Shown: positions 3,859 through 64,000 of the stretch, one piece after another
Numbering within the stretch: position 1 is the first letter of the stretch
Layout: each line of letters starts with the position of its first letter
Assembly: GCA_963662285.2 (NCBI GenBank)
Contig: CAXXMV010000008.1
Coordinates: forward strand, 1,088,001 to 1,152,000
DNA length: 64,000 nucleotides
Direction: 5' to 3'
Source: a bacterium
Lineage (GTDB): Bacteria > Hinthialibacterota > Hinthialibacteria > Hinthialibacterales > Hinthialibacteraceae
The notes under the pieces: model-generated
What the model was told of the DNA's origin: nothing
Databases searched by the model: none
What the model saw: the letters and a program-made list of their open reading frames with translations, nothing else
Position numbers and translations under genes: made by a program

Positions 3859-3906
3859 CACCCGATTATCAAGGCATGAAATTTGTTATACGAAAGCACA
3901 ATCCAA

Positions 3907-4611: not shown

Positions 4612-4696
4612 GTGCATATCTAAAAAGTCGTTACCGGAATATATATACGATAAGGATTATTATTTTGTTGCAGAAAAAAATTGATGGAGCATAATT

Positions 4697-5746
4697 GTGA
4701 ACACAATAGTGATTGGAAATCGACGTATTGGCGCTGGACAACCGACGTATATCATCGCCGAAATGTCAGCGAATCATAATCAGGATTATGATCAGGCGGT
4801 CAAAATAATTCATGCCGCCAAAGCTTGCGGCGCCGATGCGGTTAAGTTGCAAACATACACGCCAGATACCATGACCATCCAATCAGATAAAGATTTTTTC
4901 CAAATCAATAGCGGCACCATTTGGGATGGTCAAAGTTTGTATGACCTATATAAAAAGGCTTATACCCCGTGGGACTGGCAGCCAAAATTGAAAGATATCG
5001 CTGATCAAATCGGCATTGATCTATTCTCCAGCCCATTCGATTCAACAGCAGTGGATTTCTTGGAAAAGATTGATGTTCCAGCCTACAAAGTTGCTTCGCT
5101 GGAGTTGGTTGATTTACCCCTGATTGATTTAATCGCCAAAACTGGCAAGCCGTTGATCATGTCTACCGGCATGGCTTCCCTCAGCGAAATCGATGAAGCT
5201 ATGCAAACCGCCCGTAATGCGGGCGCCGATGAAATAGCGCTGCTCAAGTGCGTCAGCGCCTATCCCGCTCCAGCCGAAGAGATGAATTTGCGCACCATCC
5301 CTCACCTGGCCGAGACTTTTAACGTTACCGCTGGATTGTCGGATCATACTTTGGGCATTACGGTTCCGACAGCTGCGGTAACTCTGGGAGCGTCGATTAT
5401 CGAAAAGCATTTCACTCTTTCGCGTACAGTCGAAGGACCAGATAACGCGTTCTCCCTGGAACCTCATGAATTTGAAGCAATGGTTCAAGCGGTGCGCACC
5501 GCTGAGAAAGCCCTGGGTAGCGTGAAATATGGCGTCCAGCAGGAAGAATCCAGATGCCTGGATTATCGCCGGTCGCTTTTTGTAGTGCTAGATATCAAAA
5601 AAGGCGAACCATTCACTTCGGAGAATATTCGTTCGATTCGACCAGCTAATGGATTACATACCAGATACTATCAGGAGATTTTGGGTCGATGCGCCAGGCA
5701 TGATATCGCCGCAGGAACCCCAATGACCTGGTCGCTGATTCAATGA
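4697..5746 (+). CDS. pseI: Pseudaminic acid synthase (NeuB family with C-terminal SAF domain)
   Basis: IIAEMSANHN, AVKLQTYTPDT, YTPWDW, GLSDHTLG, IEKHFT, RRSLF, IRSIRP. Confidence 0.93.
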   Translation: MNTIVIGNRRIGAGQPTYIIAEMSANHNQDYDQAVKIIHAAKACGADAVKLQTYTPDTMTIQSDKDFFQINSGTIWDGQSLYDLYKKAYTPWDWQPKLKDIADQIGIDLFSSPFDSTAVDFLEKIDVPAYKVASLELVDLPLIDLIAKTGKPLIMSTGMASLSEIDEAMQTARNAGADEIALLKCVSAYPAPAEEMNLRTIPHLAETFNVTAGLSDHTLGITVPTAAVTLGASIIEKHFTLSRTVEGPDNAFSLEPHEFEAMVQAVRTAEKALGSVKYGVQQEESRCLDYRRSLFVVLDIKKGEPFTSENIRSIRPANGLHTRYYQEILGRCARHDIAAGTPMTWSLIQ

Positions 5747-5809
5747 TATCAAACAAAAAACATCTAGCGTTTGTTTTAGATTTGTCTAAATTATGGAGTT
5801 AATTGTCTT

Positions 5810-7336: not shown

Positions 7337-7354
7337 GATTAATATCAAATTATC

Positions 7355-9145: not shown

Positions 9146-9165
9146 AATATTCCATGAGGACTTAA

Positions 9166-10851: not shown

Positions 10852-10947
10852 TTGAAGGGTTTTAAAAGAACCATCCTTTTTAATTCTTACTCAGGATTGT
10901 AAGAGCGGCTAGAATACAAATACTCAAATCATTGGAGAGGAGAAATT

Positions 10948-11694
10948 ATGAAACGATTGACTCTTATCACAGTTGCAATGTCTATGTTGTTCATGTACGG
11001 CTGTTCGACCACTGGAAGAAAAGCATCATACCAACCGGGTCAACAGGTTGCATGTGAAATGTCGAAAAAAGTGGAGGTCAATATTGGCTATCAGTTATTC
11101 CTGCCAGCCAGTTATGACCAGAAAGAAAACAAAGACTGGCCCATGATTCTGTTCCTGCACGGCGCAGGCGAACGGGGTGATGATCTGGAAAAGGTCAAAA
11201 TGCATGGGCCTCCCAAGATGGTTGAGACCGATCCAGATTTCAGATTCGTAGTAGTCTCTCCCCAATGCCCCACAGGACAGTTCTGGGATATCGCTGTATT
11301 GAATGCTCTACTGGATGAAATTATCGAAAAATATAACATCGACCAGGATCGCATTTATTTGACTGGCCTGAGCATGGGCGGTTATGGAACCTGGAACCTG
11401 TCCACCTACCACGCCGACCGCTTCGCCGCCATCGCTCCAATATGCGGCGGCGGACAAGCCCGCTTGGCTCTTTGGATGCTTAAGGGAATGCCCATCTGGG
11501 TCTTCCACGGCGCCAAAGATAACACTGTTCCCATATCAGAATCAAAGAATATGGTTGAAGCGCTGAAAAAAGCGGGAGAAGATGTCCGCTTCACCATCTA
11601 CCCCGAAGCAGGACACGATTCCTGGACCCAGGCCTACAACACCCCCGAACTATTCGATTGGTTCCTGTCGCACAAACGCAGCGATAGAAAATAA
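10948..11694 (+). CDS. Lipoprotein alpha/beta hydrolase (phospholipase/carboxylesterase, S9-like)
   Basis: Lipobox MYGC, FLHGAGERG, nucleophile GLSMGG, FHGAKD, GHDSW. Confidence 0.88.
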   Translation: MKRLTLITVAMSMLFMYGCSTTGRKASYQPGQQVACEMSKKVEVNIGYQLFLPASYDQKENKDWPMILFLHGAGERGDDLEKVKMHGPPKMVETDPDFRFVVVSPQCPTGQFWDIAVLNALLDEIIEKYNIDQDRIYLTGLSMGGYGTWNLSTYHADRFAAIAPICGGGQARLALWMLKGMPIWVFHGAKDNTVPISESKNMVEALKKAGEDVRFTIYPEAGHDSWTQAYNTPELFDWFLSHKRSDRK

Positions 11695-11732
11695 CAAGTT
11701 TCACAAAGTTTTAGGTCTATCAACAAACCCAA

Positions 11733-11765
11733 AAGAGGCGCCAGTGATCAACACCGGCGCCTCTT
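11733..11765. terminator. Rho-independent terminator-like hairpin between convergent genes
   Basis: AAGAGGCGCC...GGCGCCTCTT stem flanked by A- and T-rich runs. Confidence 0.65.
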
Positions 11766-11790
11766 GTTTAATATGTCATTAAGCGGAATG

Positions 11791-11956
11791 GGGGTGGCAA
11801 GGGCAAGACCGCAATGCGGTCAGCCCTTGATTTAGTCCACCTCTTCCATTTCAATAATTTCCACAAACGATCCACACGAAAATCATAATCCTTGGTTTGA
11901 TTTCGTTTCTCAACAATTTCCAGTCAAGGGCAGAAAGGACACTGCCCTTGGCACCC
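11791..11956. repeat. Inverted pair of REP-like hairpins (CAAGGGC...GCCCTTG family)
   Basis: Hairpins at 11798-11829 and 11925-11950 face each other. Related copies at 31137-31175 and 35859-35890. Confidence 0.6.
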
Positions 11957-11964
11957 ACTATCCA

Positions 11965-14295
11965 CTATCCACTAATAACAAAATCACCTTCCAACCGAAT
12001 ATCCTCAGATGAATGCCCGATCATGATATGGAATTTCCCCGGCTCTACAACACGGTTCATGTTACGGTCAACCAGGGATAAATGATCCGGGGTCAGGATG
12101 AATTCGACAGTTCGCTTTTGCCCAGGCTCCAAGACGATTTTTTGAAACCCTTTCAATTCTTTCACAGGCTTCACAACCGAACTTTGCACGTCGCGGATAT
12201 AGAGTTGAGCCACTTCGGCGCCTTGCATCTTACCAGTATTCTTGATATCGACGCTAATCTTGATGTTTCCAGCAACGCCGTTCTCTTGGGGAGAGATGTA
12301 CAGGTTGCTATATTCAAAGGTGGTATAGCTCAACCCAAAACCAAATTCATATAATGGTTTGGGAGAAATATCGACGTACGAATTGCCCCATCCTTCAGTA
12401 AGCCAATATTGCTTGGATGGTTTGTGGTTATAGAAAACCGGCAGTTGCCCAACATGACGCGGAACCGTGATCGGCAAACGTCCGCTGGGGTTATAGTCGC
12501 CGAAGAGCACATCGGCGATAGCATGTCCACCCTTTTCGCCGCACATCCACGGTTCGACGATGGCCGGGATATGTTCAGCGATCCAACGGGTAGCCAGCGG
12601 CCTGCCATTAATCAGAATAACTATGGTCGGAGTTCCGGTCTTGTACACTGCTTTGACCAGATCGAGTTGCATACCGGTCAGTTCCAGAGTGGCGCAATCA
12701 TAGCCTTCTCCATTGGTGCCTTTCTTGCCAGCGGTTTCCCACTCGTTCTCACCAATAACCACGATAGCTACTTCGGCTTTTTTAGCAGCAGCGACCGCCT
12801 TATCAATTTCATCCAACTCTTCACCGATGACATCACAGCCTTTGACGTATTCGATATTGGCGGAAACCTTGTCTTTGATGCCGTCCAGTACAGTTACAAT
12901 ATCCTGCAAAACTACCTTGGAGGTGTAATCGCCCAGTTGGTTTTTCTCATGATCTGCGTTAGGACCTATCACCGCAATAGATTTGATATCCTTGCTAAGC
13001 GGCAGCAGGTTCTTTTCATTTTTAAGCAGAACAATTCCTTCACGCGCCGCCTTTAAAGCGACTGCTTGATGCTCTTCGGTAAGACGAACCGCGACGGCGT
13101 GATCAGCGTCAACCAAAGGATTCTCGAACAAACCCAGACGGAATTTTAATCTGAGGATGCGGCGCACCGAGCGGTCAATGTTCTTGATTGAAACCTTGCC
13201 TTGCTTCACGGCATCAACCAGCGGCTTCATAAATCCGGCTTCGTAAGAAATGCCCACATCAAGCCCGGCGTTCAAGCACATAACGCCCGCCTGCTGCTGA
13301 TCGGCGGCGATGCCTTCATAGACTGGAGTGGTTACGCCGCCTCCCTCGCCCAGCACCAGACCTTCGAATTGTAATTCTCCGCGTAATATGTCTGTTAGTA
13401 TTTTCGAAGATACATGCGCCGGAACGCCATCGATAGCCGGATAGGTGGCCATAACGCCTAATGCGCCGCCATGTTTGATCCCAGCCACCCACGAAGGCAG
13501 GAACACTTCGCGCAAGGTGCGTTCAGAGATTTCCATGGCGCCCCGCTCCAAACCGCTGGCTGGTTGGCTTTGTCCGGGGTAATGGCAAAAACCAGCCACC
13601 GTTTTATCCGGCGCCGATATGTCATAACCCTGGATGGCTTTAACGATATTTTTAGCATACATGGAAATCAGATAAGGGTCTTCAGAGTACCCCTCCTGGT
13701 TGCGCCCCAATCGCGGGTCGCGGTTTGGTTCAATAACCAGCGTGAATAACTGATGGATGCCCACCGACCGCGCTTCACGGGCTGCAATGGTATAGACCTC
13801 ATGGATCAAATCAGGATTCCAGGCGCTGCCCAGAGCCAGACCTTCGGGAAAGATGGTTCCGCCGGAACACATCAAACCATGCGTCCCCTCTTCGGTTTGC
13901 AGCAGTGGGATTTTCAGACGGGTCTGTTCTATCGCAATATGCTGAAGTTCATTGAAATACTCGGCCTGCTGCCGCGCTCCCTCTTGCAGGATATGATTAG
14001 CCAGGGTGAAGAATCCCCCGCCTGGCCCGATTTCATCGGTATACTCGCCCAAAGCGAACTTGCGGCAAGAATCCTGTTTTTTCTCAACGCCGTTACCCAG
14101 TTCGCCTACATAGACGCAGGGCATATTCATTTGCCCGACTTTTTCCTTCAAAGTCATACGCGACAATAAATCATCAACCCGCTTCTCGATTGGTTGGCTC
14201 GAATCCATATAGATCGGTTTCGCCATGGAAATGACGCTGGAAAATGAGATGAGGAGAGATGCAAAAATTGTAAGAGATAATAATCTGCGGAACAT
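11965..14295 (-). CDS. Secreted glycoside hydrolase family 3 (beta-glucosidase/xylosidase) with Fn3-like domain
   Basis: Signal peptide, RVDDLLSRMTLKEKVGQ, RDPRLGRNQEGYSEDP, IVLLKN, NPSGRLPIT, FGFGLSYT, KELKGF. GGAGG RBS before ATG 14295. Confidence 0.92.
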   Translation of the reverse strand: MFRRLLSLTIFASLLISFSSVISMAKPIYMDSSQPIEKRVDDLLSRMTLKEKVGQMNMPCVYVGELGNGVEKKQDSCRKFALGEYTDEIGPGGGFFTLANHILQEGARQQAEYFNELQHIAIEQTRLKIPLLQTEEGTHGLMCSGGTIFPEGLALGSAWNPDLIHEVYTIAAREARSVGIHQLFTLVIEPNRDPRLGRNQEGYSEDPYLISMYAKNIVKAIQGYDISAPDKTVAGFCHYPGQSQPASGLERGAMEISERTLREVFLPSWVAGIKHGGALGVMATYPAIDGVPAHVSSKILTDILRGELQFEGLVLGEGGGVTTPVYEGIAADQQQAGVMCLNAGLDVGISYEAGFMKPLVDAVKQGKVSIKNIDRSVRRILRLKFRLGLFENPLVDADHAVAVRLTEEHQAVALKAAREGIVLLKNEKNLLPLSKDIKSIAVIGPNADHEKNQLGDYTSKVVLQDIVTVLDGIKDKVSANIEYVKGCDVIGEELDEIDKAVAAAKKAEVAIVVIGENEWETAGKKGTNGEGYDCATLELTGMQLDLVKAVYKTGTPTIVILINGRPLATRWIAEHIPAIVEPWMCGEKGGHAIADVLFGDYNPSGRLPITVPRHVGQLPVFYNHKPSKQYWLTEGWGNSYVDISPKPLYEFGFGLSYTTFEYSNLYISPQENGVAGNIKISVDIKNTGKMQGAEVAQLYIRDVQSSVVKPVKELKGFQKIVLEPGQKRTVEFILTPDHLSLVDRNMNRVVEPGKFHIMIGHSSEDIRLEGDFVISG

Positions 14296-48074: not shown

Positions 48075-48788
48075 ATGTCACCCTCTCCCATGCCAACCGG
48101 AACCGCAAGGCCGCCATGGCGCAAGATCTCTTTTGGGAAACATTTTCTCATCTGCACAAAAAGTTTTCCGCGCTTTGGAGGGCGAACCTTCAAGGGAATG
48201 CCTCGTCGGTTCAAGCGCACCATTAATGTGGTGGACTCAACCACGATCCAGCTCGTCCACAACTGCATCGACTGGGCGCGGCATCGCCGCAAAAAAGCCG
48301 CCGCCAAACTCCATCTCAGTCTCAACCTTCAGTCGTACCTTCCCCGCTTCGTTTTGGTAGACAGCGCCCGTCACAGCGATCCCAAAAAGGCCTGGCAACT
48401 CTGCGCCCTCATGGGCCAGGGCGAAATCGTCGTCTTCGACAAAGCCTACGTCGATTTCAGCCATCTCAATGACCTCAACCAACGAGGCGTTTTCTGGGTC
48501 ACAATCGCAACGCTATTTTGTGGCAAATTTGGACAGCGCTCCTACTTTATATTTTGCTGCGTTTTCTTGTCTTTTCCAACAGTTGGAATGCCGGGTTCAA
48601 ACGGCTCTTTTGCTTGTTGCGTTCCTGCGTCTGGGATACCTTTTCCATAATCAAATTGCTTGCATCCTGTGGGACAGCACGCGGTGCGCCACGCCATGTC
48701 GCTACGGCGCACCACGCATATTTGCCTGGTTTTATCCCCTTTGAGGAGAATTAGGCAATTGGCTCAGTCGATCCTATGGGACAGCAGT
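48075..48788 (+). pseudogene. Second IS4 family transposase remnant with internal deletion and right terminal inverted repeat
   Basis: VDSTTIQL, KKAAAKLH, VFDKAYVDF, then a jump to C-terminal QIWTALLLYILLRF. IS4-type end CTATGGGACAGCAGT at about 48774-48788. Confidence 0.8.
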
Positions 48789-49073
48789 TGACCGCGTTGG
48801 ATAGGGAATCTGGGTGGTAAGAAAAAAAGTCTGCGTTTTCTTTGAAGTATGTGGTGGTGCTTGATCCATTACTACGACTAAGTGTCTTCTCTTATGGTGT
48901 TTCAATAATTGATCCAGAAAATGGATCACTTCGTCCGATGCTATTCTTTTAGGTTTCAGTGGAATATTTTAGTATGCTTATGATGGACATGTCTCGAAGA
49001 ACGATTGAAATAGAGGGCTTTGGGAAATTAATTCTCAGAGCCCTCTATTTTTCTGAATCTTGAAGGTGACAAA

Positions 49074-49307
49074 ATGGAAATAAACAATCCCAACCAATCG
49101 ATCAAATCAGAAACACGGCCAGTGGAGTATCTAACCCGACAGAAAGCAGCAGATTATCTCCGTATATCGGTGCGATTGTTGGATCAGAAAGCGGCAGTCG
49201 GGGAGATCGCATATTAGAAGTTGGGGAATGGTCCGACTAGCCGTGTATTGTACAAATTCATTGACCTCAAGAAGTATATCGAAAAAAAGTGCCGGGTTGA
49301 GATATAA
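49074..49307 (+). pseudogene. Excisionase-like HTH_17 protein with premature stop
   Basis: Translates MEINNPNQSIKSETRPVEYLTRQKAADYLRISVRLLDQKAAVGEIAY*KLGNGPTSRVLYKFIDLKKYIEKKCRVEI*. In-frame TAG at 49215-49217; absent from the ORF track. Confidence 0.7.
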
Positions 49308-49414
49308 TGTGTTTAGAGAGACCACGGATTAAAACCGTTGGTCACCATTTGGTCACCATCACCAAAACGGGAAAATGGATAAATTCGTAAGTCAAATTTT
49401 TTGTGGGTATTAAA

Positions 49415-49461
49415 TGGTGGGCCATATAGGAATTGAACCTATAACCTGCCGATTAAGAGTC
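49415..49461 (-). mobile_element. att site: 3' half of tRNA-Lys(CTT), not an intact tRNA
   Basis: Minus strand GACTCTTAATCGGCAGGTTATAGGTTCAATTCCTATATGGCCCACCA gives the anticodon loop (CTT), T-arm, acceptor 3' strand and CCA. No D-arm or 5' acceptor strand. About 240 bp from the integrase. Confidence 0.85.
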
Positions 49462-49699
49462 ATTTGATGCACTGATTTTTCTAATTCTTCATATCTTCTT
49501 ATGAGTCAATATTTTATAACGTAATTCACATGATGTCAATAGTTTATAGCGATATTTTTTTGTGACGTCTTTTCACGTTGAGTCACTTTTTCGTTCATGA
49601 AACGCCGCATAATCTGAGTCAAAAATGAGTCAGTTTATATTCCCATTAAATCAAAAATCGGCTATATTATTGTAGAGATTCCAATTGAAAGGACCGGGG

Positions 49700-50734
49700 A
49701 TGTCTCATCTCACTAAACGAAAAGGCTCTTCATACTGGCATATTCGCTACACGCATCCCATAACAGGAAAAACGACTTTTAAGAGCACGAAATCAAAAGA
49801 ATATAGGCAGGCTTTGAGTCTGAAAAAAGAATTCGATAAAAAGATGGCGAAAGGGGCCATGGCGGAGGTAGTAGGAAGCAAAGGTACGCTTGCTGAACTC
49901 GCCGAGAAATATTGTGAGTGGGTGAAAGATAGACGATCACCGAAATGGTCGATGCAATTGGGAAGAATGATCAATAATGAGATTTTGCCATTTATCGGTA
50001 AAAATACCCGGATTACAAAAATCACGAAAAACAAACTCTATTCGTTTCAGACCTACTTGATCGACAGAAAACTTTCGAAACGTACCGTTAATCTGTACGT
50101 CGGAACCCTTCGCGCAATGTTGAGAAAAGTACCGGAATGGTATTCCACATTAAGAGATTGGAATCCTCCACGTATTGAGGAACTTCGTTTGGAAGTAAAA
50201 CCGCCCCGGTTCTTTTCGGAAGAAGAATGCGATCACCTGCTACATGTTGCGAAAGAATATAGCGAGCCCATTTATCTGACAGTAGCGTTTGCCCGGTACT
50301 GTGGTTTCCGCAAGAGCGAAATCATGAGGCTAAAATGGGAAGACATCGACCTGAAGGAGAATCGCATCATGGTTGATACAAGAAAGAACAAACACTTTCT
50401 TGGCGTTCCAATCCATCCAAAACTTGCTGAGATTCTGATGACGATTCCCAAAACTGAACGAGAAGGGCAAGTCATTAAAAAGAAAGGCGAGGGATTTCGC
50501 CTCGATATCCGTTACCCTTGGGAACAAGTTCGAAAAATCGCTGGCGAAAAGCATGGCGTTCGGCAGGATTTGGGATTACATGGACTCCGGCATTCTTTTG
50601 GCGCTCATCTCGCTCAAAAAGGAGTTGGGATTCACGCCCTTCGCGAATTAATGGGTCATAAAGATCTTCAGGTCACACAACGATACGCTCATCTCAATGA
50701 TGAACGGTTAAGAGAAGATATTGAAAAACTGTAA
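49700..50734 (+). CDS. Tyrosine recombinase/integrase
   Basis: Arm-binding-like N-terminus (YWHIRY), catalytic R (GFRKSE), HGLRHSFG, LMGH, TQRYAH. Confidence 0.93.
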   Translation: MSHLTKRKGSSYWHIRYTHPITGKTTFKSTKSKEYRQALSLKKEFDKKMAKGAMAEVVGSKGTLAELAEKYCEWVKDRRSPKWSMQLGRMINNEILPFIGKNTRITKITKNKLYSFQTYLIDRKLSKRTVNLYVGTLRAMLRKVPEWYSTLRDWNPPRIEELRLEVKPPRFFSEEECDHLLHVAKEYSEPIYLTVAFARYCGFRKSEIMRLKWEDIDLKENRIMVDTRKNKHFLGVPIHPKLAEILMTIPKTEREGQVIKKKGEGFRLDIRYPWEQVRKIAGEKHGVRQDLGLHGLRHSFGAHLAQKGVGIHALRELMGHKDLQVTQRYAHLNDERLREDIEKL

Positions 50735-54577: not shown

Positions 54578-55801
54578 CTAGTTGGAGGGGGGAATCAGGA
54601 CGGTTGGCGTCTTTATCTTAGGCTGCGGCGTCACGCCGCGGATTTGCCGCAAGAATGCCGCATAGACGTCCGGCTGTGTGGTCTTCACGAAGCGGAAGAA
54701 CGCCGCATAGTACATGGTTTGCCGAGCCGCATGATAGACGGGCGGGTTACCCCCTTCCAGTTCCTCCATCTTGTCGGAGAGCCGGCGGCTCAGATCCGGC
54801 AACATCTCGAAGTAGTTGGCGTCGATGTACTCATTTACCAGTTTTGTTTGCTCATCGAATTCGATCCTATTGGTATCGTCTTCGGAAAGGTTGTCGCCCA
54901 AGAAGGCCTTCCGTTTCTTAACGCGATCCATCAGTTTTTCAATGGTCTCAGGACGATCAAAATAATCGATCAGGTCTTGTTCGTCGAATCCTTCTTTTAA
55001 CCGCCAACAAGCCCAATAGGGACGCCCCCCGAATGTGAGCGTCATGACTTTCGATATCTTTTCCAAACGCATGCTCACCCCCTCGGGATCATCAGTGATG
55101 ACATATGAGTGCGGATCCCCCCCCTGGTAGAGGTCGCTCAACACGTTGAAATCGGAGCGGTTACGTTCGACATTGCGGGGATATTCGCCTGGGGCTTTCA
55201 TAACTCCGTCGCCCGCCGTCAGGTTCTCCGACGCCACGGGGTGGAAGGCCAGCAGGTCGGTCTGCATCAGGCGCAGTCCCAAAAACGTGTCCTGTATGGC
55301 GGCATGGTAGTTCATAATCCTTTGCCCCTCTTTCATCCGCCTTGCAGTGTCTTCCTCGTCGATGAGCTGGCCGAACAGCGTAAACAGCGCGTCCTGTTCG
55401 CCATTGGCGAATTGGGCGACGGGCACGGCGAGCCAGTCGTAAACCGGCAGCGTCACCGTATAGGTGACGTCTTTGAAAACGGTTGCCTGAAGCCGTTTCC
55501 CATCGGGCTGCCTGGCATCATAGCGAAGCGCCGTCACTTTGCTGCCGTCCAACGGCTTCGCAACAGCCCCGAAGGCGACACCCCCGACCCCTGAACAGAA
55601 GCCGAACGACTTGATTCCTTGCGCGGCTTTCATGCTATTCACTAACGGTTTCGCAATCGGGTTGGCAAAGGAGTACATACCCGCCATAATTTGCGCCAAG
55701 GACGGCAGCGCAATAACGGCGCCAACCACGCACGCCCAGATCCATTTCCGCCAAATCGATTTCATGAATCGTTTGACATAACCATCACTCTCATTCTTCA
55801 T
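54578..55801 (-). CDS. Hypothetical exported or membrane-anchored protein
   Basis: GGGAG RBS before ATG 55801, hydrophobic N-terminal segment (WIWACVVGAVIALPSLA), GC-rich codon usage like the TIR gene 14 bp downstream. Confidence 0.65.
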   Translation of the reverse strand: MKNESDGYVKRFMKSIWRKWIWACVVGAVIALPSLAQIMAGMYSFANPIAKPLVNSMKAAQGIKSFGFCSGVGGVAFGAVAKPLDGSKVTALRYDARQPDGKRLQATVFKDVTYTVTLPVYDWLAVPVAQFANGEQDALFTLFGQLIDEEDTARRMKEGQRIMNYHAAIQDTFLGLRLMQTDLLAFHPVASENLTAGDGVMKAPGEYPRNVERNRSDFNVLSDLYQGGDPHSYVITDDPEGVSMRLEKISKVMTLTFGGRPYWACWRLKEGFDEQDLIDYFDRPETIEKLMDRVKKRKAFLGDNLSEDDTNRIEFDEQTKLVNEYIDANYFEMLPDLSRRLSDKMEELEGGNPPVYHAARQTMYYAAFFRFVKTTQPDVYAAFLRQIRGVTPQPKIKTPTVLIPPSN

Positions 55802-56155
55802 CGCATTTTCTCCCGTCGCGAATCCCAGTTTTGTGACCACCGGTTATGATGTAACATGCCGTGTGGTGCGTTACAAACGGAAAGGCCTTCAATCGGGATT
55901 TTCCATTTAACCTGAGAAATCTCACTGATTTTTTTAATACCATCTAATTCCCTCAAAGAAAATACTCAATGTCAAGTTCTCTTCGAGAATTTCACTCGTT
56001 TTCATGAATCCAAGGGCCTATAAATTCTGTCAATTCAAAAAAATAGACGCACTTCCACAGTTTCAATCTCAAATATTCTCAATTTATGCTATTCAAATCC
56101 GAATCATCACACTGGAATCGATTTGAGTCGGTGAATCTTCTGAAGAACCTTTCAA

Positions 56156-56318: not shown

Positions 56319-57934
56319 GGTTCCTCGGAAAAATCTGTGGGTAAAAAATGAGTTTTTTTAGGCATATGGGAATGCTCTGAATTGTCGAATGATCTTCACA
56401 CGGAGAAAAATCGCGGAAGAAAAGAACGGTTTAAAGTTGCCTTGGATTTACGGCTGATTTTATTGGGTATCGAGATTGACGGAGGCTTGTGGATTCTGTC
56501 CCCCCAATTGGGGCAAGATGATCAAATGCTTTAATCGCTACAAAAAAATAACATGAAAAACTGGTTAAGAAGAGAGAGGCGAAGGGATTAATGAAGAGGA
56601 GGTAGAAAGAGACATCCGGTCCCTTATCCTGAGAAAATGGGAGTCGCGAACAACCATTGATCGGGAGGAAACCGGATGCATCTGAAAACCATCCTCAATC
56701 GCGTGCATAAAATCAAGGGATACGTGTACGGATCGATCCAGTTTGGGGAGTGGAACGGCAAAACGGCCCTGGAGGTCGAAATCCATCCTCGGGCGGGAAG
56801 CCGGGCTATGTGCTCGGGGTGTGGAAAGAGGAGGCCGGGATACGATAAGTTGGAGAGACGTCGCTTCGAGTTCGTCCCCTTGTGGGGCATCGCCACCTAT
56901 TTTCTATACGAAATGAGGCGCGTGAATTGCCCCCAGTGCGGCGTGAAAGTCGAACAGACGCCGTGGGCGGATGGGAAGCATGAGTTGACGGGGACCTATC
57001 AGTGGTTTCTGGCGGGCTGGGCGAAACGACTGAGTTGGAGTGAGGTCGCAGAAGCGTTCGAGACGAGTTGGTACAACGTGTTTCATTCCGTGGAACGGGC
57101 GGTGGAGTGGGGCCGCCGTCATATGGACTTGAAGGGAATTACGGCGATCGGTGTGGACGAAATGCAGTGGGGAGGCGGGCATCGATACGTGACGGTGGTG
57201 TACCAAATCAACGAAGGGTGCAAGCGGCTGTTATGGATTGGGCAACACCGAAAAGTAAAAACCTTGTTGCGATTTTTTCGATGGTTTGGAGAAGAACGTT
57301 CGGCCCAGTTAGAGTTCGTATGCAGCGATATGTGGAAAGCGTATCTCAAGGTGGTGGCCAAGAAAGCGAATCAAGCCATTCATATCCTGGACCGGTTTCA
57401 TCTTGTGGCGCACCTCAATAAAGCGATCGACGAAGTGCGGGCGGGAGAAGCCCGTGCGTTGAAAGCCAAGGGATGCGAGCCGATCTTGAAAGGAAGCCGC
57501 TGGTGGTTTCTGAAACGGCCGGTCAATTTGACGGCCAAGCAAGTGGAAAAACTGGCGGACGTACTGCGGTACAATCTGCGCACGGTGCGAGCGTATCTAT
57601 TGAAAGAAGAATTCCAGTTTTTCTGGGAATACCAATCGGCATGGTGGGCGGGGCGATTTTTGGATCAATGGTGTACAAAGGTCATGCGTTCGCGAATCGA
57701 ACCGATGAAAAAGGTAGCAAAAATGTTGCGGAGTCATCGAGACCTGATTTTGAACTGGTTTCGAGCGAAAAAGAGTTTTCCTCGAGTGTGGTAGAAGGCT
57801 TGAACAACAAAGCAAAATTGACAACGAAAAAAGCCTATGGTTTTCGAACCTTCCGAAGTTTGGAAATCTCTTTATATCATACACTTGGGAAACTTCCTGA
57901 ACCGGAATTTACCCACAGATTTTTTTGACGAGGC
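56319..57934 (+). mobile_element. ISL3 family insertion sequence
   Basis: 27-bp imperfect terminal inverted repeats: GGTTCCTCGGAAAAATCTGTGGGTAAA versus reverse complement GCCTCGTCAAAAAAATCTGTGGGTAAA. No target duplication evident. Confidence 0.85.
56676..57928 (+). pseudogene. ISL3 transposase with a single frameshift near the C-terminus
   Basis: Zinc finger CSGC/CPQC, IGVDE, CSDMWKAY, DRFH; continues in another frame as SSVVEGLNNKAK...AYGFR. Shift at the A-run at about 57768-57772. Confidence 0.88.
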
Positions 57935-57985: not shown

Positions 57986-59092
57986 ATGGTTATGGAGCAA
58001 AATTCTAGTAATCCAATTGTTGGAAATATGGTTCTGTATTGCCTTCTGCGCCGCTGGAACAGTGATCGTAAAGAGTCACAGTTCCTGTTGATAAAAAAAC
58101 AGGACTATTTTACCTTTCCTGCAACCAAACTTCGCGCAAATGAAGACTTATACCATGCTTTAATCCGTGCATTGGATGAAGATTTGAAAATAAAATCTGG
58201 AAAATATTTCATTGAGGAAGAACTACCGATGATTCCATCCTCTGGTACAAGTCCTCGTCCAAAGCATGGGGATGGACTCCCTAAAAATTGGTTCTTATAT
58301 CCGTTGGTTATGTCCTACCATGAAGACGCTCTTGATGCGATACCGCTCGATCAGATCAACTGGATGACAATTGATGAGATTATTGATCAAAACAAGGAAC
58401 CCAATATCCTAACTATTGCACAAATGATCAAGAAGAATCGATCCGATCTTTGCTCAGAACCTCCTAAAACGCCTTCAATGGATGCCCTTGCTTGTGCCTG
58501 GTCTGCACAAAATAGTCAAGAAGTACGCATTGTACGTCAAAATGATATTAAAGGGATTCTTAACATAGGCAATCGAGCCTTTAACCTTAGGGTGGCAGAT
58601 CCTTATTTACCCTATCATAAGCAAGGATTGGGATTCACCTGGAGTTTCTTTACCCCGAAAGATAAACAGGATTTGCATGTCCATGGTTTGCCCTCCGTAG
58701 AAATTTATGGGATTCTTGAAGGAGAGTTGCTTCTGTGGTACAAACCCATGAATCAAAGGGGAGCGCGATCTTGGAGTTTTCAGTTACTTCGCGCCGGGGA
58801 TTGGGCGGAAGTTGGCCCTCTTCAGTGTCATTTTGCCTGTTGGCTGACCAAAGATGGGCTAGGAACAGTAATAAAAGCCGCAGGAGCAGGAGAACTAGCC
58901 GGAGTAGGCCGTTTAGGAATCTCTGGCAAAACAGTATGTCAATGGAAAGATCATGCTGGAAATGAACAACATTGCAGCAATTATGGTCACTGTTTAATCC
59001 ATCCGATTATGGAAAAACTGATGATCGAATATGGAAAACCTTTTGAAGATAGAAAATATGATATCATTCGTATGTTGTACGATCAAATATAA
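57986..59092 (+). CDS. Degenerate Nudix-fold domain fused to a cupin domain
   Basis: FPATKLRANEDLYHALIRALDEDLKI aligns to the Nudix box but lacks key residues. Cupin motifs DLHVHGLPSVEIYGILEG and LRAGDWAEVGPLQCHF. Cys/His-rich tail. Confidence 0.65.
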   Translation: MVMEQNSSNPIVGNMVLYCLLRRWNSDRKESQFLLIKKQDYFTFPATKLRANEDLYHALIRALDEDLKIKSGKYFIEEELPMIPSSGTSPRPKHGDGLPKNWFLYPLVMSYHEDALDAIPLDQINWMTIDEIIDQNKEPNILTIAQMIKKNRSDLCSEPPKTPSMDALACAWSAQNSQEVRIVRQNDIKGILNIGNRAFNLRVADPYLPYHKQGLGFTWSFFTPKDKQDLHVHGLPSVEIYGILEGELLLWYKPMNQRGARSWSFQLLRAGDWAEVGPLQCHFACWLTKDGLGTVIKAAGAGELAGVGRLGISGKTVCQWKDHAGNEQHCSNYGHCLIHPIMEKLMIEYGKPFEDRKYDIIRMLYDQI

Positions 59093-59106: not shown

Positions 59107-59517
59107 ATGCATTTAATGTCAAAACCATTTCGCCTCTCGGTTAAAGCCATCGTTCGCAATGAAGAAAACGAGTGCCTTGTTATTCGCCGGTCTAACTATT
59201 CAAAACATAACGCTGGGAGATGGGATTTCCCAGGTGGGAAAGTCGACGTAGGTGAGAATTTCGATGCTGCTCTTATCCGTGAAATTGGCGAAGAAACATC
59301 GATTGAAATTAAACTGACAGGTTTTGCCGGTTGTGGTCAATCGCAAGCCCCTGAAAATACAGTTATTTACCTTTTTATGAATGCGATGGCTCTAACCCAA
59401 GAGGTTGTATTAAGCGAAGAGCATACGGAGTATCAGTGGGTTCCTCTGTCTAATCTTCTAAATGTAGATATGGGGGATCAGTTTAAAGATATTTGTGAAG
59501 TTCTTGCAGCAGAGTAG
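59107..59517 (+). CDS. Nudix hydrolase
   Basis: Intact Nudix box WDFPGGKVDVGENFDAALIREIGEETSI; LSEEHTEYQWV. Confidence 0.92.
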   Translation: MHLMSKPFRLSVKAIVRNEENECLVIRRSNYSKHNAGRWDFPGGKVDVGENFDAALIREIGEETSIEIKLTGFAGCGQSQAPENTVIYLFMNAMALTQEVVLSEEHTEYQWVPLSNLLNVDMGDQFKDICEVLAAE

Positions 59518-59541: not shown

Positions 59542-62500
59542 ATGAATTCCGAAAAACTAAAAGAATATTCGGATAAATATAAAGAAGATCTTTTCCCAAA
59601 ATTTCAAATTTACTCATCTACGCTTGAGTGTATATTAAAATCTATTGCTAATGATACTGATCCTTTAGCATTTGTCAGCGCAAGACCAAAGAGTCTTGAA
59701 TCCTTTATTGAAAAAATTAATAGAAAAGGGTATGAAGAACCATTTAAACAAATGACAGATATGTGTGGAGCAAGAATTGTTGCCCATACGATTGATCAAA
59801 TAGATCAGATAAGAGAAATCATTGAAAGAGAATTCATTATTGACCAGAAGAACTATGTTGATGCAATAGAAAGATTATCAAAAAATGAATTTGGGTATCT
59901 TTCTGTTCATTATATTGTGCAATTAAAAGCAGGTACTATATTGGGCATTGTTGTTCCAAATGATATACTGCCAAATGATGAAATACCATTTAAAGCAGAA
60001 ATTCAAGTTAGAACATTAAAACTAAAAGATTATTTGGATCAATATAAAGATCTTTTCCCAAAATTTCAAATTTACTCATCTACGCTTGAGTGTATATTAA
60101 AATCTATTGCTAATGATACTGATCCTTTAGCATTTGTCAGCGCAAGACCAAAGAGTCTTGCATCCTTTATTGAAAAAATTAATAGAAAAGGGTATGAAGA
60201 ACCATTTAAACAAATGACAGATATGTGTGGAGCAAGAATTGTTGCCCATACGATCGATCAAATAGATCAGATAAAAGAAATCATTGAAAGAGAATTCATT
60301 ATTGACCAGAAGAACTATGTTGATGCAATAGAAAGATTATCAAAAAATGAATTTGGGTATCTTTCTATCCATTATATTGTGCAATTAAAAGCAGGTACTA
60401 TATTGGGTATTGTTGTTCCAGATGATATACTGCCAAATGATGAAATACCATTTAAAGCAGAAATTCAAGTTAGAACATTATTGCAACATACTTGGGCAGA
60501 TACATTCCATGATCGTTTGTATAAAAATAATATCAAGAAACCTAAATCCCTTGAACGTGATGTCGCAAGAGTGGCTGCCATTCTTGAAGAAGCCGATAAC
60601 CTTATTTCCAAAGAAACAAGTATGATCGATGACTTTATTGTTGATATTGGCGCATATCTGTCAAAGAAAGAAATTGAAAAAGAAATCGATATACTGAAAA
60701 ATGTTTTTTCATTGGATGAAGATGTAAAGAATAAACAAAATCTAGCCCTACGTATATCTAAACTATATCGCGCTATATTTGAATGGGATCATATTATAGA
60801 TTTTCTAAATAAAACAAATATTTATCAATCTAATCCAAAATTACTTGCAGAATTAGGTAATGCGTATTGTGAAAACTACTCTCTCACACCGAATGATGAC
60901 AACTATGATAAAGGCATAAAGTTACTGAATGAATCTATTGATTCAAATAATTCTGATCCTTTATCACTTTCCCTATTAGCTCAGGCCTATATTAGAAAGA
61001 GAGGAGAAAATGATAAAACAAAAATGCATTTCAAAAGAGCATTTGAACTGAACCCGAAAAATCCTTACTATTTTTCAAATTATCTCGTTTTTGAATTGTC
61101 TCATTCTTCATTTTTGCTACAACCATTTATCAATCTAGCTATAGATACATGTCAGCAACATATTGAAGCAAGAATTGAATTACCACAAGCCTATTTGACA
61201 ATTGGACGCCTTTCTTTATTGTTATTAAATGACATATATACGAATGACAATAAAGATAGAATCGAAAAAGTAAAAATGGAACATTTTATTAATCAAATAA
61301 TTGAAAATTATGCTCTTGCTATTAAAATGTACTTAGAAATGGATTCTTGCATATGTTCATCGGTTATAAATAATGAAATTATCTTCATAAAAGAAATCAA
61401 AGGTAAATTATCATCTTTACGTAACGATCCTAAAAAAATATTAGAGTCTATTTTATTTATGCTCATTATTGCAAATTATCTTAAGAATAAAGAATGTCCT
61501 AAATGTCAAGTTGATAATATTGAATTAAATAAAATGAAACCCGAAAATGAATTACCTTATGAGGAAAATAAAAAAATTCTGTTTGTTGTAGGAGGATGTT
61601 CAAAGGATATTTCATCTGATATAAAGCATTACAAACCAGTCTTAGAAAATATACTTAAACATTTTAATGGGATTGTTATTGGAGGTGGTACAACATCTGG
61701 AATAAGTGGTATGCTAGGAGAAATTGCCTCAAAAACAATAAATGATCGAAAGTATATATTATTGGGTTATCATCCTTCAAGACTTGGAACTGATTATACA
61801 GTTGATCGTGATAATTACGACGTACTAGTAAAAACAAAATCAGAAGATAACTGCCTTTTTGACTCTCTACAGGCTTGGATCGATATTCTGGCCTCAAATA
61901 TTCCAATTGAAAATATAAGAATTTTAGCCATTAATGGAGGGAATATTACTTTACAAGAATGTTTTGTTGGAATATCTTTTGGTTCTTTAACTGGTGTTGT
62001 AAAAGGGAGTGGTCGTTCTGCGGATATTATTTTGTCTAATCCTCGATGGAGTAAAATGGATAATATAATTCCGCTTATCGATGAAGATATGACAATAAAT
62101 GCATTTGTAAATCAGGGTCAATCAAAATTAAATGTAGAACTAATAGATTCAATATCTAAATGTGCTCATGAAAAATTTATCGAACATTGTGGAAGTGAAA
62201 AGTATGAAAAATCATATCGTCCATGGGAAGACTTAAGTGATTATTACAAAGAAGCCAATCGAAGGCAAATTCGATATGCTGAAGTAATATTAAAGGCAAA
62301 TGGTTATCAGATGGTTGAAATTGGAGATGAGAAACAAGTAAAAGTTTATTCTTTCACTGATGATGACTCTAAACGTGTTGAAGAAATGTCAAAAATGGAG
62401 CATGGAAGATGGGTTCTTTCGAAAATAATGGATAAATGGGTTGAAGGAAAACCCAGGGATGATAGCAAGAAAATTCATCCTGATATAACCGGATGGGATA

Positions 62501-62592
62501 ATTTAGATCAAAATACAAAAAATAAGGATATAAACGCTGTTAAATCATGGCCTGAAATCTTTGCGAAAGCTGGGATTGAGATACGTCGCTAA
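59542..62592 (+). CDS. RelA/SpoT-type nucleotide pyrophosphokinase (two tandem copies) + TPR + SLOG-like + RyR domains
   Basis: Synthetase motifs ARPKS, TDMCGAR, FGYLS(V/I)HY and EIQVRT occur twice, then LQHTWA...HDRLYK. TPR-like FKRAFELNPKNPYY; SLOG-like FVVGGC...IGGGTTSGISG; RyR-like EHGRW...RDDSKKIHPDITGWDNL...KD. Confidence 0.85.
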   Translation: MNSEKLKEYSDKYKEDLFPKFQIYSSTLECILKSIANDTDPLAFVSARPKSLESFIEKINRKGYEEPFKQMTDMCGARIVAHTIDQIDQIREIIEREFIIDQKNYVDAIERLSKNEFGYLSVHYIVQLKAGTILGIVVPNDILPNDEIPFKAEIQVRTLKLKDYLDQYKDLFPKFQIYSSTLECILKSIANDTDPLAFVSARPKSLASFIEKINRKGYEEPFKQMTDMCGARIVAHTIDQIDQIKEIIEREFIIDQKNYVDAIERLSKNEFGYLSIHYIVQLKAGTILGIVVPDDILPNDEIPFKAEIQVRTLLQHTWADTFHDRLYKNNIKKPKSLERDVARVAAILEEADNLISKETSMIDDFIVDIGAYLSKKEIEKEIDILKNVFSLDEDVKNKQNLALRISKLYRAIFEWDHIIDFLNKTNIYQSNPKLLAELGNAYCENYSLTPNDDNYDKGIKLLNESIDSNNSDPLSLSLLAQAYIRKRGENDKTKMHFKRAFELNPKNPYYFSNYLVFELSHSSFLLQPFINLAIDTCQQHIEARIELPQAYLTIGRLSLLLLNDIYTNDNKDRIEKVKMEHFINQIIENYALAIKMYLEMDSCICSSVINNEIIFIKEIKGKLSSLRNDPKKILESILFMLIIANYLKNKECPKCQVDNIELNKMKPENELPYEENKKILFVVGGCSKDISSDIKHYKPVLENILKHFNGIVIGGGTTSGISGMLGEIASKTINDRKYILLGYHPSRLGTDYTVDRDNYDVLVKTKSEDNCLFDSLQAWIDILASNIPIENIRILAINGGNITLQECFVGISFGSLTGVVKGSGRSADIILSNPRWSKMDNIIPLIDEDMTINAFVNQGQSKLNVELIDSISKCAHEKFIEHCGSEKYEKSYRPWEDLSDYYKEANRRQIRYAEVILKANGYQMVEIGDEKQVKVYSFTDDDSKRVEEMSKMEHGRWVLSKIMDKWVEGKPRDDSKKIHPDITGWDNLDQNTKNKDINAVKSWPEIFAKAGIEIRR
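59554..60480 (+). repeat. In-frame tandem duplication of the synthetase domain (465 bp + 462 bp)
   Basis: 59554-60018 and 60019-60480 are near identical, with about ten substitutions and one 3-nt indel by my reading. Confidence 0.92.
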
Positions 62593-62698
62593 TAAATATG
62601 GGAATAAATTTAATTTCCAAAAATTTACATGAAACAATAATGCATCGATAAGGATATGCCAGTCGGCATGAATCTCAGTAGTTATGAGGATCAATATC

Positions 62699-64000
62699 AT
62701 GACCACCTCCGGTAGTGGAAAACGACTGCGACCGGTCATTCGAGTGTTTGTCAGTTCGACGTTCAGCGACATGAAGCACGAGCGGAACGCTTTGGAGGCC
62801 GATGCCTTTCCGAAACTGGAGCAGCTCTGTCAGCGTCATGGGTTTCAGTTCCAAGCCATCGATCTGCGCTGGGGCGTCTCGACTGAAGCTGGGCTGGATC
62901 ACCGAACGATGCAGATTTGCTACGAGGAATTGCGCCGGTCGCAAGAGATTTCCCCGGAACCAAATTTCCTTATCTTGCTGGGCAACCGCTATGGATGGCG
63001 GCCTTTGCCAGAAGCGATCTCACAGAAAGAATATGAAAATCTTCGCAATGCAGCAATGGAATGCGATAAAGACGGCAAGGCTATCATCAAAGGAATAGGT
63101 GACAAGTCAGCCGAACAGATACTCAAAGAATGGTATCGACTCGATGAAAATATTCTCCCCTCCGATCGAACACGGGATGATCCTGACTGCGCGCCACTGA
63201 ACTACATACTGCAATCACGTCTACAAGTTGTTGATGGGCATCTAAAGTATGGTCGTAGGAAGAAAGTCTCAGGCATGGGAGACGAAGACACGCCAGAATG
63301 GATTGCCGTCCAGAATGTTCTCTGGAATATGATCAACGCAGCATTTCCAGCTGATGCCCGTTTCAAAAACCGCTTCAAAAACATTGATGGGAACAAGCAT
63401 ATCCAGGATGTCGACAGTACACTAGACCCCAAGCGCACCGTACCACAGATCGTGCGTTTCCAGGGCTCCGCGACCGAGCAAGAGATATGGAGCGGCGCTC
63501 TTAGCGTCCCACATGCCGATCAACACGTCTTGGCGTTTTTCCGGGAGATCGAGAACCGCGCCGCCTTCTCCGATCCGAAGCAGATTGAGAACTTCGTTGA
63601 TGTGGACCCGTCCGGTACACTCCAGATTGAGCAGTTGAAGGCAGAACTTCGCCTGCGGTTGGGCAGTTCGAATCTTTTCCACAACGAGGCTCCCGTGAGG
63701 TTGGTGGAGGCTCAAGACAATCAGGGTGACCGAAGAGTTGATATCACGACGGATCACCTAGACCAGCTTTGCGCCAATGTGGTAAGCCGGCTGTCAGAGA
63801 GCATCCAGGGCCAGATCGATGAGTATTGGCACAATACCTCACCAGCTTCAATGAATCGCGCCGCTCGCGAACTAGAAATCGAACAGCGCGAATACGAACG
63901 GTTCGCCAAGGAGCGTGGCGGTGAAGAGTCGTTTGTTGGCCGACAAGTCGAGTTGCAGTCTATTCTCGACTACATGGGGAGCGATTCCTGTTGGCCATTG
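62699..64000 (+). CDS. DUF4062 (TIR-like) + NACHT/STAND NTPase protein, NWD1/2-like, 3'-truncated by window edge
   Basis: GAGGA RBS and 434 codons without a stop. IRVFVSSTFSDMKHERNAL, IDLRWGV, LLGNRYGWRPLP, WYRLDEN, SATEQEI; ends at FVGRQVELQSILDY, the usual lead-in to Walker A. Absent from the ORF track. Confidence 0.85.
   Translation, partial: MTTSGSGKRLRPVIRVFVSSTFSDMKHERNALEADAFPKLEQLCQRHGFQFQAIDLRWGVSTEAGLDHRTMQICYEELRRSQEISPEPNFLILLGNRYGWRPLPEAISQKEYENLRNAAMECDKDGKAIIKGIGDKSAEQILKEWYRLDENILPSDRTRDDPDCAPLNYILQSRLQVVDGHLKYGRRKKVSGMGDEDTPEWIAVQNVLWNMINAAFPADARFKNRFKNIDGNKHIQDVDSTLDPKRTVPQIVRFQGSATEQEIWSGALSVPHADQHVLAFFREIENRAAFSDPKQIENFVDVDPSGTLQIEQLKAELRLRLGSSNLFHNEAPVRLVEAQDNQGDRRVDITTDHLDQLCANVVSRLSESIQGQIDEYWHNTSPASMNRAARELEIEQREYERFAKERGGEESFVGRQVELQSILDYMGSDSCWPL

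Follow-up and report, generated by a model that had tools for sequence, protein, structure and literature searches.

The 64,000-nucleotide stretch of DNA analysed here, referred to below as the window, comprises positions 1,088,001 to 1,152,000 (forward strand) of contig CAXXMV010000008.1 in assembly GCA_963662285.2, and derives from a bacterium of the Hinthialibacterota with a genome of 7.29 Mb in 8 contigs. Close to its right end, an intact open reading frame (ORF) on the plus strand (59542-62592) encodes a protein of 1016 aa, in which a RelA/SpoT-type pyrophosphokinase domain is followed by helical repeats resembling tetratricopeptide repeats (TPR), a SLOG domain of the LSDAT type and two RyR repeats. 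The gene lies directly downstream of a Nudix hydrolase gene, and the two would form a nucleotide-signalling conflict module within a defence island. Alarmone synthetases are stress regulators that have more recently been recognized as antiphage toxins, and TIR-type NADases signal through SLOG effectors. The protein family described here joins these two themes in a single polypeptide, and in lineages as far apart as Chloroflexota and methanogenic archaea its genes have NADase genes as neighbours. No paper describing a RelA/SpoT-TPR-SLOG-RyR fusion was found in the literature. Burroughs et al. (NAR, 2015) are said to have defined LSDAT and TPR-S, and may already depict the fusion architecture.

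Domain architecture of the 1016-aa protein

In Pfam, the RelA_SpoT family (PF04607) matches the protein with 117.1 bits in two stretches, LSDAT_prok with 27.9 bits confined to residues 794-835, and RyR (PF02026) with 40 bits at residues 939-1015, where only the second of two repeats is detected (the gathering scores are 27, 25.4 and 27.4 bits, respectively). No HD, TGS or ACT family was matched at E<=0.01, in agreement with the initial annotation, which a model had made from the sequence and which described a synthetase without these domains. The best NCBIfam model is that of the RelQ-type GTP diphosphokinase YjbM, the score of which (86.8 bits) lies far under the 320-bit equivalog cut-off, and the PADLOC candidate models PDC-S33 and PDC-S07 match the synthetase/Nudix gene pair, PDC-S07 being the Nudix hydrolase. 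AlphaFold2 (AF2) models were obtained for the full-length protein (pLDDT 85.8, pTM 0.73) and separately for residues 665-1016 (pLDDT 93.5, pTM 0.91), and were compared by Foldseek and by VIA Z-scores. The full-length model consists of the synthetase, the helical repeats, SLOG and RyR only, and by every test run the protein belongs to the synthetase-only class of RelA/SpoT homologues (RSH), to the SLOG/LSDAT clade and to the RyR-domain family.

The best matches of the synthetase domain by sequence, profile and fold are RelQ and RelP (YjbM/YwaC), which share with it the synthetase-only catalytic domain and all four motifs, although the identity to them is only ~25%. The complete catalytic domain carries the RSH motifs RxKxxxSxxxK, DxxGxR, YxSxH and ExQxRT, and residues R202, K204, S208, K212, D227, G230, R232, Y273, S275, H277, E307, Q309 and T312 are invariant in 55 full-length and 67 domain sequences. 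Foldseek places RelQ (5dec) first (E 8.6e-7, TMt 0.79), together with RelP, and CapRel (7ztb, 9erv) lower, with a TMt of 0.40. When compared to solved structures, the domain profile reaches RelP/RelQ with E-values of 7e-22 to 1e-14, CapRel with 1.6e-5, Rel with 4e-3, FaRel2 with 0.016 and RelA with 0.03. This ranking favours a putative alarmone-making enzyme over a tRNA modifier, although profile scores cannot replace a phylogeny and do not identify the substrate.

The same ranking bears on an alternative that we consider unlikely, according to which the protein would be an autonomous, CapRel-like fused toxic small alarmone synthetase (toxSAS), with the TPR/RyR region sensing a phage protein, the CCA ends of tRNAs being pyrophosphorylated, the Nudix enzyme acting as an antitoxin by reversing this modification or holding the synthetase in check, and the NADases working independently. 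CapRel is indeed recovered by both profile and fold, TPR arrays are common protein-sensing modules, and the setting is a defence island; however, the synthetase profile lies far nearer to RelP/RelQ than to CapRel or FaRel2, and a pure protein sensor would have no need of the two conserved nucleotide-binding folds with invariant pocket-type glycines that are found in the C-terminal half.

The region that follows the synthetase is all-helical in the model (residues 335-664), as had been proposed initially, and its TPR-like nature emerges only at the level of the family. While the protein itself yields weak matches to NCBIfam TPR proteins at residues 366-517, the TPR and TPR-S families of Pfam are matched in homologues, and the family profile finds the consensus TPR structure 8bu0 with an E-value of 2.6e-13.

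The SLOG assignment of the initial annotation is upheld by Pfam and by structural comparison (VIA Z 15-18). LSDAT_prok spans a longer region in homologues, for example residues 665-832 of P0130. Residues G684, G720, W779, D781, G799, G800 and E806 are invariant, and the pocket motifs (G684, G710, G715, G716, T717, G720, G799, G800 and E806) are invariant or at least 90% conserved. The top Foldseek matches are entries of the TRPM2 channel, several of which were solved with ADP-ribose. By VIA, the domain matches the LOG-like protein TM1055 (1rcu; Z 18.1, 161 aligned residues), MCP (2iz5; Z 15.8), the MHR1/2 region of TRPM2 (8sr7; Z 15.4, 191 aligned), LOG enzymes (Z 13-14), DprA (Z ~13) and the SLOG domain of ThsA with 3'cADPR (7uxs; Z 12.0). 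The first of these matches raises the question of whether SLOG is itself an enzyme, namely a LOG-like N-glycosidase or nucleotide-processing domain acting on the synthetase product or on an NAD-derived nucleotide. The LOG-like GGxxxG and GG-x5-E motifs are conserved, with E806 invariant, and both TM1055 and the LOG enzymes rank high; on the other hand, Pfam and the best long matches point to the non-catalytic TRPM MHR1/2 clade, and the ThsA SLOG domain, which is a pure sensor, is matched as well. On balance, we regard a catalytic SLOG domain as highly improbable.

The initial annotation also recognized RyR sequence and read it as one split repeat. The RyR assignment stands; instead of a split repeat, however, two complete repeats are present (residues ~865-926 and 940-1016), with RPWEDLSDYYKEANR belonging to the first and EHGRW...IHPDITGWDNL to the second. 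The pair, which occupies the last ~190 residues, aligns with Repeat12 of RyR3 (9ls7, 9l9b and 6uhh; TMt 0.57-0.60, ~197 of 205 columns), and the matched entries were solved with ATP, ADP or AMP-PCP. It also resembles the bacterial RyR protein 3nrt (VIA Z 9.8, 82 of 93 residues aligned) and 6uhs (Z 9.8 over 152 residues), and the family profile matches RyR2 in 3 stretches (E 5.6e-32). Thus, the AlphaFold and Foldseek comparison that had been suggested as a check places the C-terminal parts among SLOG and RyR folds. Because their closest folds were solved with ADP-ribose, 3'cADPR or ATP/ADP/AMP-PCP, this structural precedent suggests that SLOG and/or RyR may bind ligands.

An internal duplication of the catalytic domain

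The gene contains an in-frame tandem duplication of 465 nt, which was overlooked in the initial annotation. It covers most of the catalytic domain and accounts for the two RelA_SpoT stretches in Pfam. Over 139 aligned codons the two copies differ by 7 nt, amounting to 2 synonymous and 4 non-synonymous codon changes without any stop, while their 15-codon heads carry three further substitutions and a one-codon (3-nt) indel. Copy 1 ends at EIQVRTL and is devoid of the next helix (LLQHTWADTFHDRLYK in copy 2), which bears the invariant residues H323, Y327 and K328 and the near-invariant H316, W318, A319 and D324. The AF2 confidence of copy 1 is 73-81 in residues 1-100 and 41-66 in residues 101-160, and it is mostly above 90 from copy 2 onward. 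Copy 1 is probably inactive.

The duplication is also seen in sequencing reads. Among the Logan contigs of two runs from one sample, a contig of 88 nt spans positions 59989-60076 and thus bridges the last bases of copy 1 and the head specific to copy 2. Since the depth of this junction contig (~6) equals that of the flanks (6-7), with the collapsed 434-nt repeat contig at ~9.8, the duplicated form is predominant in the sequenced sample. The sample may be the one from which the assembly was made, hence the junction coverage is not an independent confirmation. A scan of 40 long or odd-length proteins, 20 of which bear RelA_SpoT, revealed no relative with two synthetase stretches. A search of the genomes of 40 relatives returned no close orthologue that would date the event, as only one of them has a family member, at 31-37% identity.

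It may be asked whether the duplication damaged or neutralized this copy, such that a misfolding or dominant-negative partial synthetase was added to a gene that is now decaying. This is rather improbable in our estimate, and would be compatible with any of the other explanations. It would agree with the missing helix and low confidence of copy 1, with the absence of a second stretch in the scanned relatives, with the length of the homologues (mostly 800-900 aa in a set of 83) and with an island riddled with insertion sequence (IS) elements. Against it, the frame is open over 1016 codons, the protein is complete and confidently modelled from copy 2 onward, the copies diverged without gaining a stop, and the duplicated form predominates in the sample. 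Alternatively, the N-terminal half-domain could be a natural regulatory variant, for instance a pseudo-substrate or an oligomerization brake. The locus offers a natural experiment, in which an intact gene carries a duplicated partial catalytic domain.

The Nudix partner

Genomic associations were counted in the best 80 of 434 loci encoding a family relative; these 434 were obtained from 463 pattern matches in GTDB (one genome per species). At E<=1e-3, a Nudix homologue is present in 46 of the 80 loci. In 42 it is directly adjacent to the family gene (26 upstream and 15 downstream on the same strand, and 1 on the opposite strand), and of the remaining ones 1 is fused, 2 are further away and 1 is unclassified. 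Fusions to Nudix occur in 7 of 83 homologues; among the long or odd-length proteins with RelA_SpoT, they account for 5 of 20. The fused Nudix domain is N-terminal to the synthetase, which is the order of the two genes in the window. The resulting layout of hydrolase, synthetase and regulatory region parallels that of long RSH proteins, with Nudix in place of HD. Such a tight bicistronic or fused partner is also what toxin-antitoxin loci display, a point in favour of the CapRel-like alternative introduced above.

The Nudix enzyme looks catalytically intact, and its Nudix-box residues G43, G44, E59, E62 and E63 do not vary among 41 partners. Its closest matches in solved structures are the MutT-related 3grn (7e-34), NudI, MutT and CTP pyrophosphohydrolases, with ADP-ribose pyrophosphatases ranking behind them. 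A complex prediction for the Nudix protein and the synthetase domain returned a score of 0.00, which counts neither way. In one further locus, a Nudix-like stretch with an in-frame stop lies 2.7 kb upstream of the family gene (L050:2777-3082) and is possibly a decayed partner.

NADase neighbours and island setting

Genes encoding TIR or DUF4062 domains are frequent companions of the family. Within ~6 kb of the family gene, which was the range searched per locus, TIR was found in 32, DUF4062 in 19 and either of them in 43 of the 80 loci, and the encoded protein usually also contains a STAND NTPase plus WD40 or TPR repeats. Direct abutment on the RSH/Nudix block, with no ORF of 80 aa or more in between, was seen in 25 loci; in 21 of these the gene shares the strand of the block and is separated from it by 2-393 nt or, in one case, overlaps it. 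The hidden Markov models of TIR and DUF4062 were home-made from the same 80 loci that were searched, and ORF calling was naive. In the host genome, which holds 12 TIR/DUF4062 matches, 9 are located within 25 kb of one of its two family genes. Given their genomic density, TIR/DUF4062-STAND genes are found next to the module far more frequently than would be predicted. Same-strand abutment in 21 loci from many phyla is hard to attribute to chance, which argues against NADases that are independent of the synthetase, as the CapRel-like alternative would have it.

The second family gene of the genome, situated 380 kb away and ~30% identical, is part of a same-strand run encoding a TIR-NPHP3_N-TPR protein (1541 aa), a kinase-like/TPR/TPR-S protein (1365 aa), the RSH protein (825 aa) and a Nudix protein (143 aa). 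In the window, the neighbour downstream of the synthetase gene encodes a DUF4062-NACHT-WD40 protein, and a promoter and terminator scan, uninformative overall, gave 29 promoter-like sites around the putative operon (22 expected) and no terminator-like site between the two genes. DUF4062 is described as a TIR-like NADase in the available portions of two 2026 preprints, one of which has it convert NAD+ into ADP-ribose and nicotinamide, whereas the other presents NAD+ depletion by the domain as the effector activity of Avs. Sequence kinship was not shown by hhalign, which gave the alignments of DUF4062 and TIR a probability of 4.9%, so that the term 'TIR-like' rests on the preprints.

The G+C content (GC) of the synthetase gene is 0.304, compared to a genome mean of 0.440 (standard deviation 0.035) in 14,529 windows of gene length, of which only 24 reach a value this low; the composition of the gene is foreign to the genome. 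As the initial annotation had remarked, the gene is more AT-rich than its neighbours, which have GC values of 0.41-0.42 (the two Nudix genes), 0.52 (DUF4062) and 0.53-0.59 (ISL3 transposase, 420-aa gene and TIR-TPR gene).

These features also bear on the improbable alternative of a physiological, non-immune alarmone synthetase, which would translate NAD/ADP-ribose or adenylate status, as perceived by SLOG and RyR, into a stringent-like response, with the Nudix enzyme as its matching hydrolase, the pair being functionally analogous to a bifunctional long RSH protein. Its closest similarity is to housekeeping RelP and RelQ, the Nudix-synthetase-regulatory order mirrors that of long RSH proteins, and the family has a wide distribution among free-living bacteria and archaea, all of which would suit this explanation. 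Nevertheless, the family is patchy among the relatives searched (1 of 40) and the gene is of foreign composition. Moreover, transposases and an integrase flank the locus, its company consists of TIR, DUF4062, STAND and CHAT proteins, and the genome holds two divergent copies, each in an island of this kind.

Distribution of the family

A word-indexed search recovered 83 other proteins, the best of them 47% identical, and the family protein is typically ~840 aa long. According to precomputed Pfam matches, nearly all of the 83 share RelA_SpoT and RyR, and about half carry LSDAT_prok; 11 shorter homologues (~600-810 aa) are without RyR, and most of these have TPR-S instead. The 80 best loci include members of the Chloroflexota, Planctomycetota, Desulfobacterota, Acidobacteriota, Bacteroidota, KSB1, Cloacimonadota, Gemmatimonadota, Bacillota, Actinomycetota, Nitrospirota and others, as well as methanogens and Bathyarchaeia. 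With a profile of the SLOG-RyR module alone, the number of matched clusters (50% identity) is 2,280 at E<=1e-30 and rises to 12,391 at E<=1e-3. Plasmid and phage collections returned no full-length copy, as the 16 plasmid records and 1 phage record found cover less than 80% of the query and their matches are confined to the synthetase domain. The family is patchy and laterally mobile.

Many loci contain two family genes in tandem (L006, L008, L078, L030, L052, L055, L056, L062 and others), the products often measuring ~850-880 aa and ~600-690 aa, respectively. Duplication of whole genes is common among family members, in contrast to the duplication within the gene in the window. The 40 odd-length matches listed include a single protein-kinase fusion with SLOG-RyR at its N-terminus (P0153), as well as three proteins in which three RyR repeats follow a TrkA_N domain (P0109, P0215 and P0222). 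These matches lend weak support to effector swapping on the SLOG-RyR module.

Proposed mechanism

From the domains, their conservation and the gene associations, we infer a ligand, a product, a direction of regulation and a phenotype as follows. The SLOG and/or RyR regions would bind a nucleotide, the most likely candidate being ADP-ribose or a similar product of NAD that would be set free as the neighbouring TIR/DUF4062 NADases fire. Binding would then release the synthetase, which would produce (p)ppGpp- or (p)ppApp-type alarmones and thereby cause growth arrest. The Nudix enzyme would hydrolyse the product or, less likely, the ligand, and would thus stand in for the HD domain of long RSH proteins. 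We give an even chance to the core of this proposal, namely a nucleotide-gated RelQ-like pyrophosphokinase with an ADP-ribose-type ligand of SLOG and/or RyR and a product-hydrolysing Nudix enzyme.

Much of the overall reading in the initial annotation is compatible with this proposal. Its domain calls hold, and its general idea of a ligand-gated, alarmone-type synthetase with an upstream Nudix partner is backed by the invariant catalytic motifs, by Nudix adjacency and fusion, and by the defence-island setting. The 'built-in feedback module' that it attributed to the protein finds no support, as the adjacency of TIR/DUF4062 NADases points instead to an incoming NAD-derived signal.

Several observations weigh against the proposed mechanism. 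No TIR/DUF4062 gene was found within ~6 kb in 37 of the 80 loci, which also favours the CapRel-like alternative; the NADase link is not obligatory, and it may mirror nothing but the clustering of genes in defence islands. In the available text of the 2026 preprints, TIR/DUF4062 proteins with STAND modules are complete defence systems alone, and a RelA, SLOG, Nudix or RyR partner is not mentioned in that of the two DUF4062 preprints. The GC spread within the putative operon (0.41/0.42, 0.30 and 0.52) suggests a recent mosaic rather than a co-evolved unit. With regard to the Nudix enzyme, 34 of the 80 loci contain no homologue at the threshold used, and its resemblance to MutT and NudI over ADP-ribose pyrophosphatases would fit hydrolysis of the product, although this resemblance does not fix the substrate. 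Finally, the SLOG domain keeps a LOG-like GG...E motif and so could be catalytic rather than a sensor, and the duplication may have impaired the 1016-aa copy.

Relation to known systems

RelQ and RelP are single-domain tetramers of ~210 aa under allosteric control by pppGpp or RNA, whereas the 1016-aa protein adds ~680 residues of TPR, SLOG and RyR, a Nudix partner and a mobile defence island. CapRel and the toxSAS enzymes resemble it in combining a RelA/SpoT domain with a C-terminal regulatory region, in their defence setting and in the partner at the antitoxin place. Compared to CapRel, however, the similarity is weaker (1.6e-5 versus 7e-22 for the closest RelP/RelQ match) and the sensor is TPR-SLOG-RyR instead of a pseudo-ZFD, while the partners of toxSAS enzymes are small alarmone hydrolases or proteinaceous antitoxins and not, as here, a Nudix enzyme. 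Neither Nudix nor TPR appears in the main text of Jimmy et al. 2020.

The proposed logic is reminiscent of type I Thoeris, in which an NADase (the TIR protein ThsB) stands beside a SLOG effector (the SIR2-SLOG protein ThsA), and by this analogy the 1016-aa protein may work like ThsA. It is not ThsA, since it has no SIR2 and its enzymatic domain is RelA_SpoT. Furthermore, its SLOG domain is of the LSDAT/TRPM clade, the NADases are large STAND proteins rather than a small ThsB, the Nudix and RyR parts are without a Thoeris counterpart, and the coupling is here a putative one. In the available portion of a 2025 preprint survey of TIR signalling systems (Thoeris), no alarmone, ppGpp, Nudix or RyR effector is named. 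The family could tentatively be viewed as the receiver arm of a Thoeris-like pathway, a proposal that we hold to be possible rather than probable, in which phage-activated TIR or DUF4062 (NIR) STAND NADases would give off ADP-ribose or a derivative. Perceived by the TRPM-type SLOG domain with the ATP-binding-type RyR pair, this signal would activate a RelQ-like synthetase that imposes dormancy, with the MutT-like Nudix enzyme as the off-switch.

TRPM2 likewise combines an LSDAT-type SLOG (MHR1/2) with a Nudix domain (NUDT9-H). It is a eukaryotic ion channel, though, whereas here a pyrophosphokinase domain would provide the output, and Nudix occurs either as a MutT-like protein of its own or fused N-terminally. 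The DUF4062/NIR NADases (Swarozyc, and Avs with a NIR effector) share the DUF4062-NACHT-repeat architecture with the gene downstream of the synthetase. In the available text of the preprints NAD depletion is the end point, and the DUF4062 gene of the window is only a neighbour of the synthetase.

The novel elements are the duplication within the gene, the NADase association as counted here and the agreement of that association with the recent biochemistry of DUF4062. If the proposed mechanism is true, cleavage of NAD would be converted into reversible growth arrest rather than cell death, and bacterial RyR domains and TRPM-type SLOG domains outside animals would acquire a function. Likewise, a Nudix enzyme would join the known off-switches of alarmones and signals, and the SLOG-plus-Nudix logic of TRPM2 would have a prokaryotic precedent.

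Other features of the island

The features of the locus are collected in Table 1. GC turns mosaic from about 50.7 kb onward, and a DDE transposase fragment and a tyrosine recombinase (48075-50734) precede the mosaic stretch. The 64-kb window contains no tRNA gene that could have served as an integration site.

Table 1. Genes and protein regions of the locus, with positions in the window
Feature	Position	Strand	Basis
Tyrosine recombinase (phage-integrase family), near the likely left island edge	49685..50734	+	Family match; GC mosaic onward
TIR-TPR protein, 506 aa	53043..54563	-	Pfam TIR_2 43 bits and TPR families
420-aa protein, no Pfam family above cut-off, paired with the TIR-TPR gene	54578..55840	-	Pfam
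ISL3-family transposase, separating the TIR pair from the Nudix/synthetase block	56676..57794	+	DDE_Tnp_ISL3 208 bits
Nudix-like/cupin-like protein, 368 aa, 14 nt upstream of the Nudix gene, occasional accessory	57986..59092	+	Weak NUDIX 21.2 bits
Nudix hydrolase, 136 aa, 24 nt upstream of the synthetase gene	59107..59517	+	Pfam NUDIX 81 bits; PADLOC PDC-S07
RelA/SpoT - TPR-like - SLOG(LSDAT) - RyR x2 protein gene	59542..62592	+	ORF, Pfam, AF2
Duplication copy 1, truncated synthetase (residues ~5-159)	59553..60017	+	Repeat comparison
Duplication copy 2 (60018-60482), continuing into the complete synthetase (residues ~160-335)	60018..60546	+	Motifs present
All-helical TPR-like repeats (residues ~336-664)	60547..61533	+	AF2 helices, NCBIfam, homologues, profile
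SLOG, LSDAT/TRPM type (residues ~677-857), GGTTSG and NGGxxxxxE motifs conserved	61570..62112	+	Pfam, AF2, Foldseek, VIA
Two tandem RyR repeats, Repeat12-like (residues ~865-1016)	62134..62589	+	Pfam, profile, Foldseek, VIA
DUF4062 - NACHT - WD40 protein, 1541 aa, 91 nt downstream of the synthetase gene	62684..64000, past window end	+	Pfam DUF4062 42 bits

The TIR-TPR gene lies 5 kb upstream of the synthetase gene on the opposite strand. It forms a pair with the 420-aa gene, and a Calditrichota metagenome-assembled genome has this pair, with its gene order retained, downstream of a family gene (L046:9674-11768). The 368-aa protein upstream of the Nudix hydrolase has a 54% identical paralogue in the second island of the genome (L082:16123-17208, minus strand), where it overlaps a TrkA_N-RyR protein, and a homologue of likewise 54% identity is located downstream of a family gene and its Nudix gene (L061:9092-10120). 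Thus, proteins of this type recur beside RyR-domain proteins of different kinds.

Past the end of the window (L081, C8:1152001-1171000, to which the next coordinates refer), a 142-aa DUF4062 fragment (3652-4077) is followed by an IS21-type element (4196-6626), consisting of a Mu-transposase-like gene and IstB, and then by a 1715-aa AAA_16-WD40 ORF (7037-12181). The fragment and the ORF look like a second DUF4062-STAND gene that was split by the IS21-type insertion. In addition, a family of 530-714 aa proteins without a Pfam match at 1e-5 adjoins the RSH/Nudix block in 7 of the 80 loci (L003 (3918-5660), L033, L036, L038, L039, L046 and L075).

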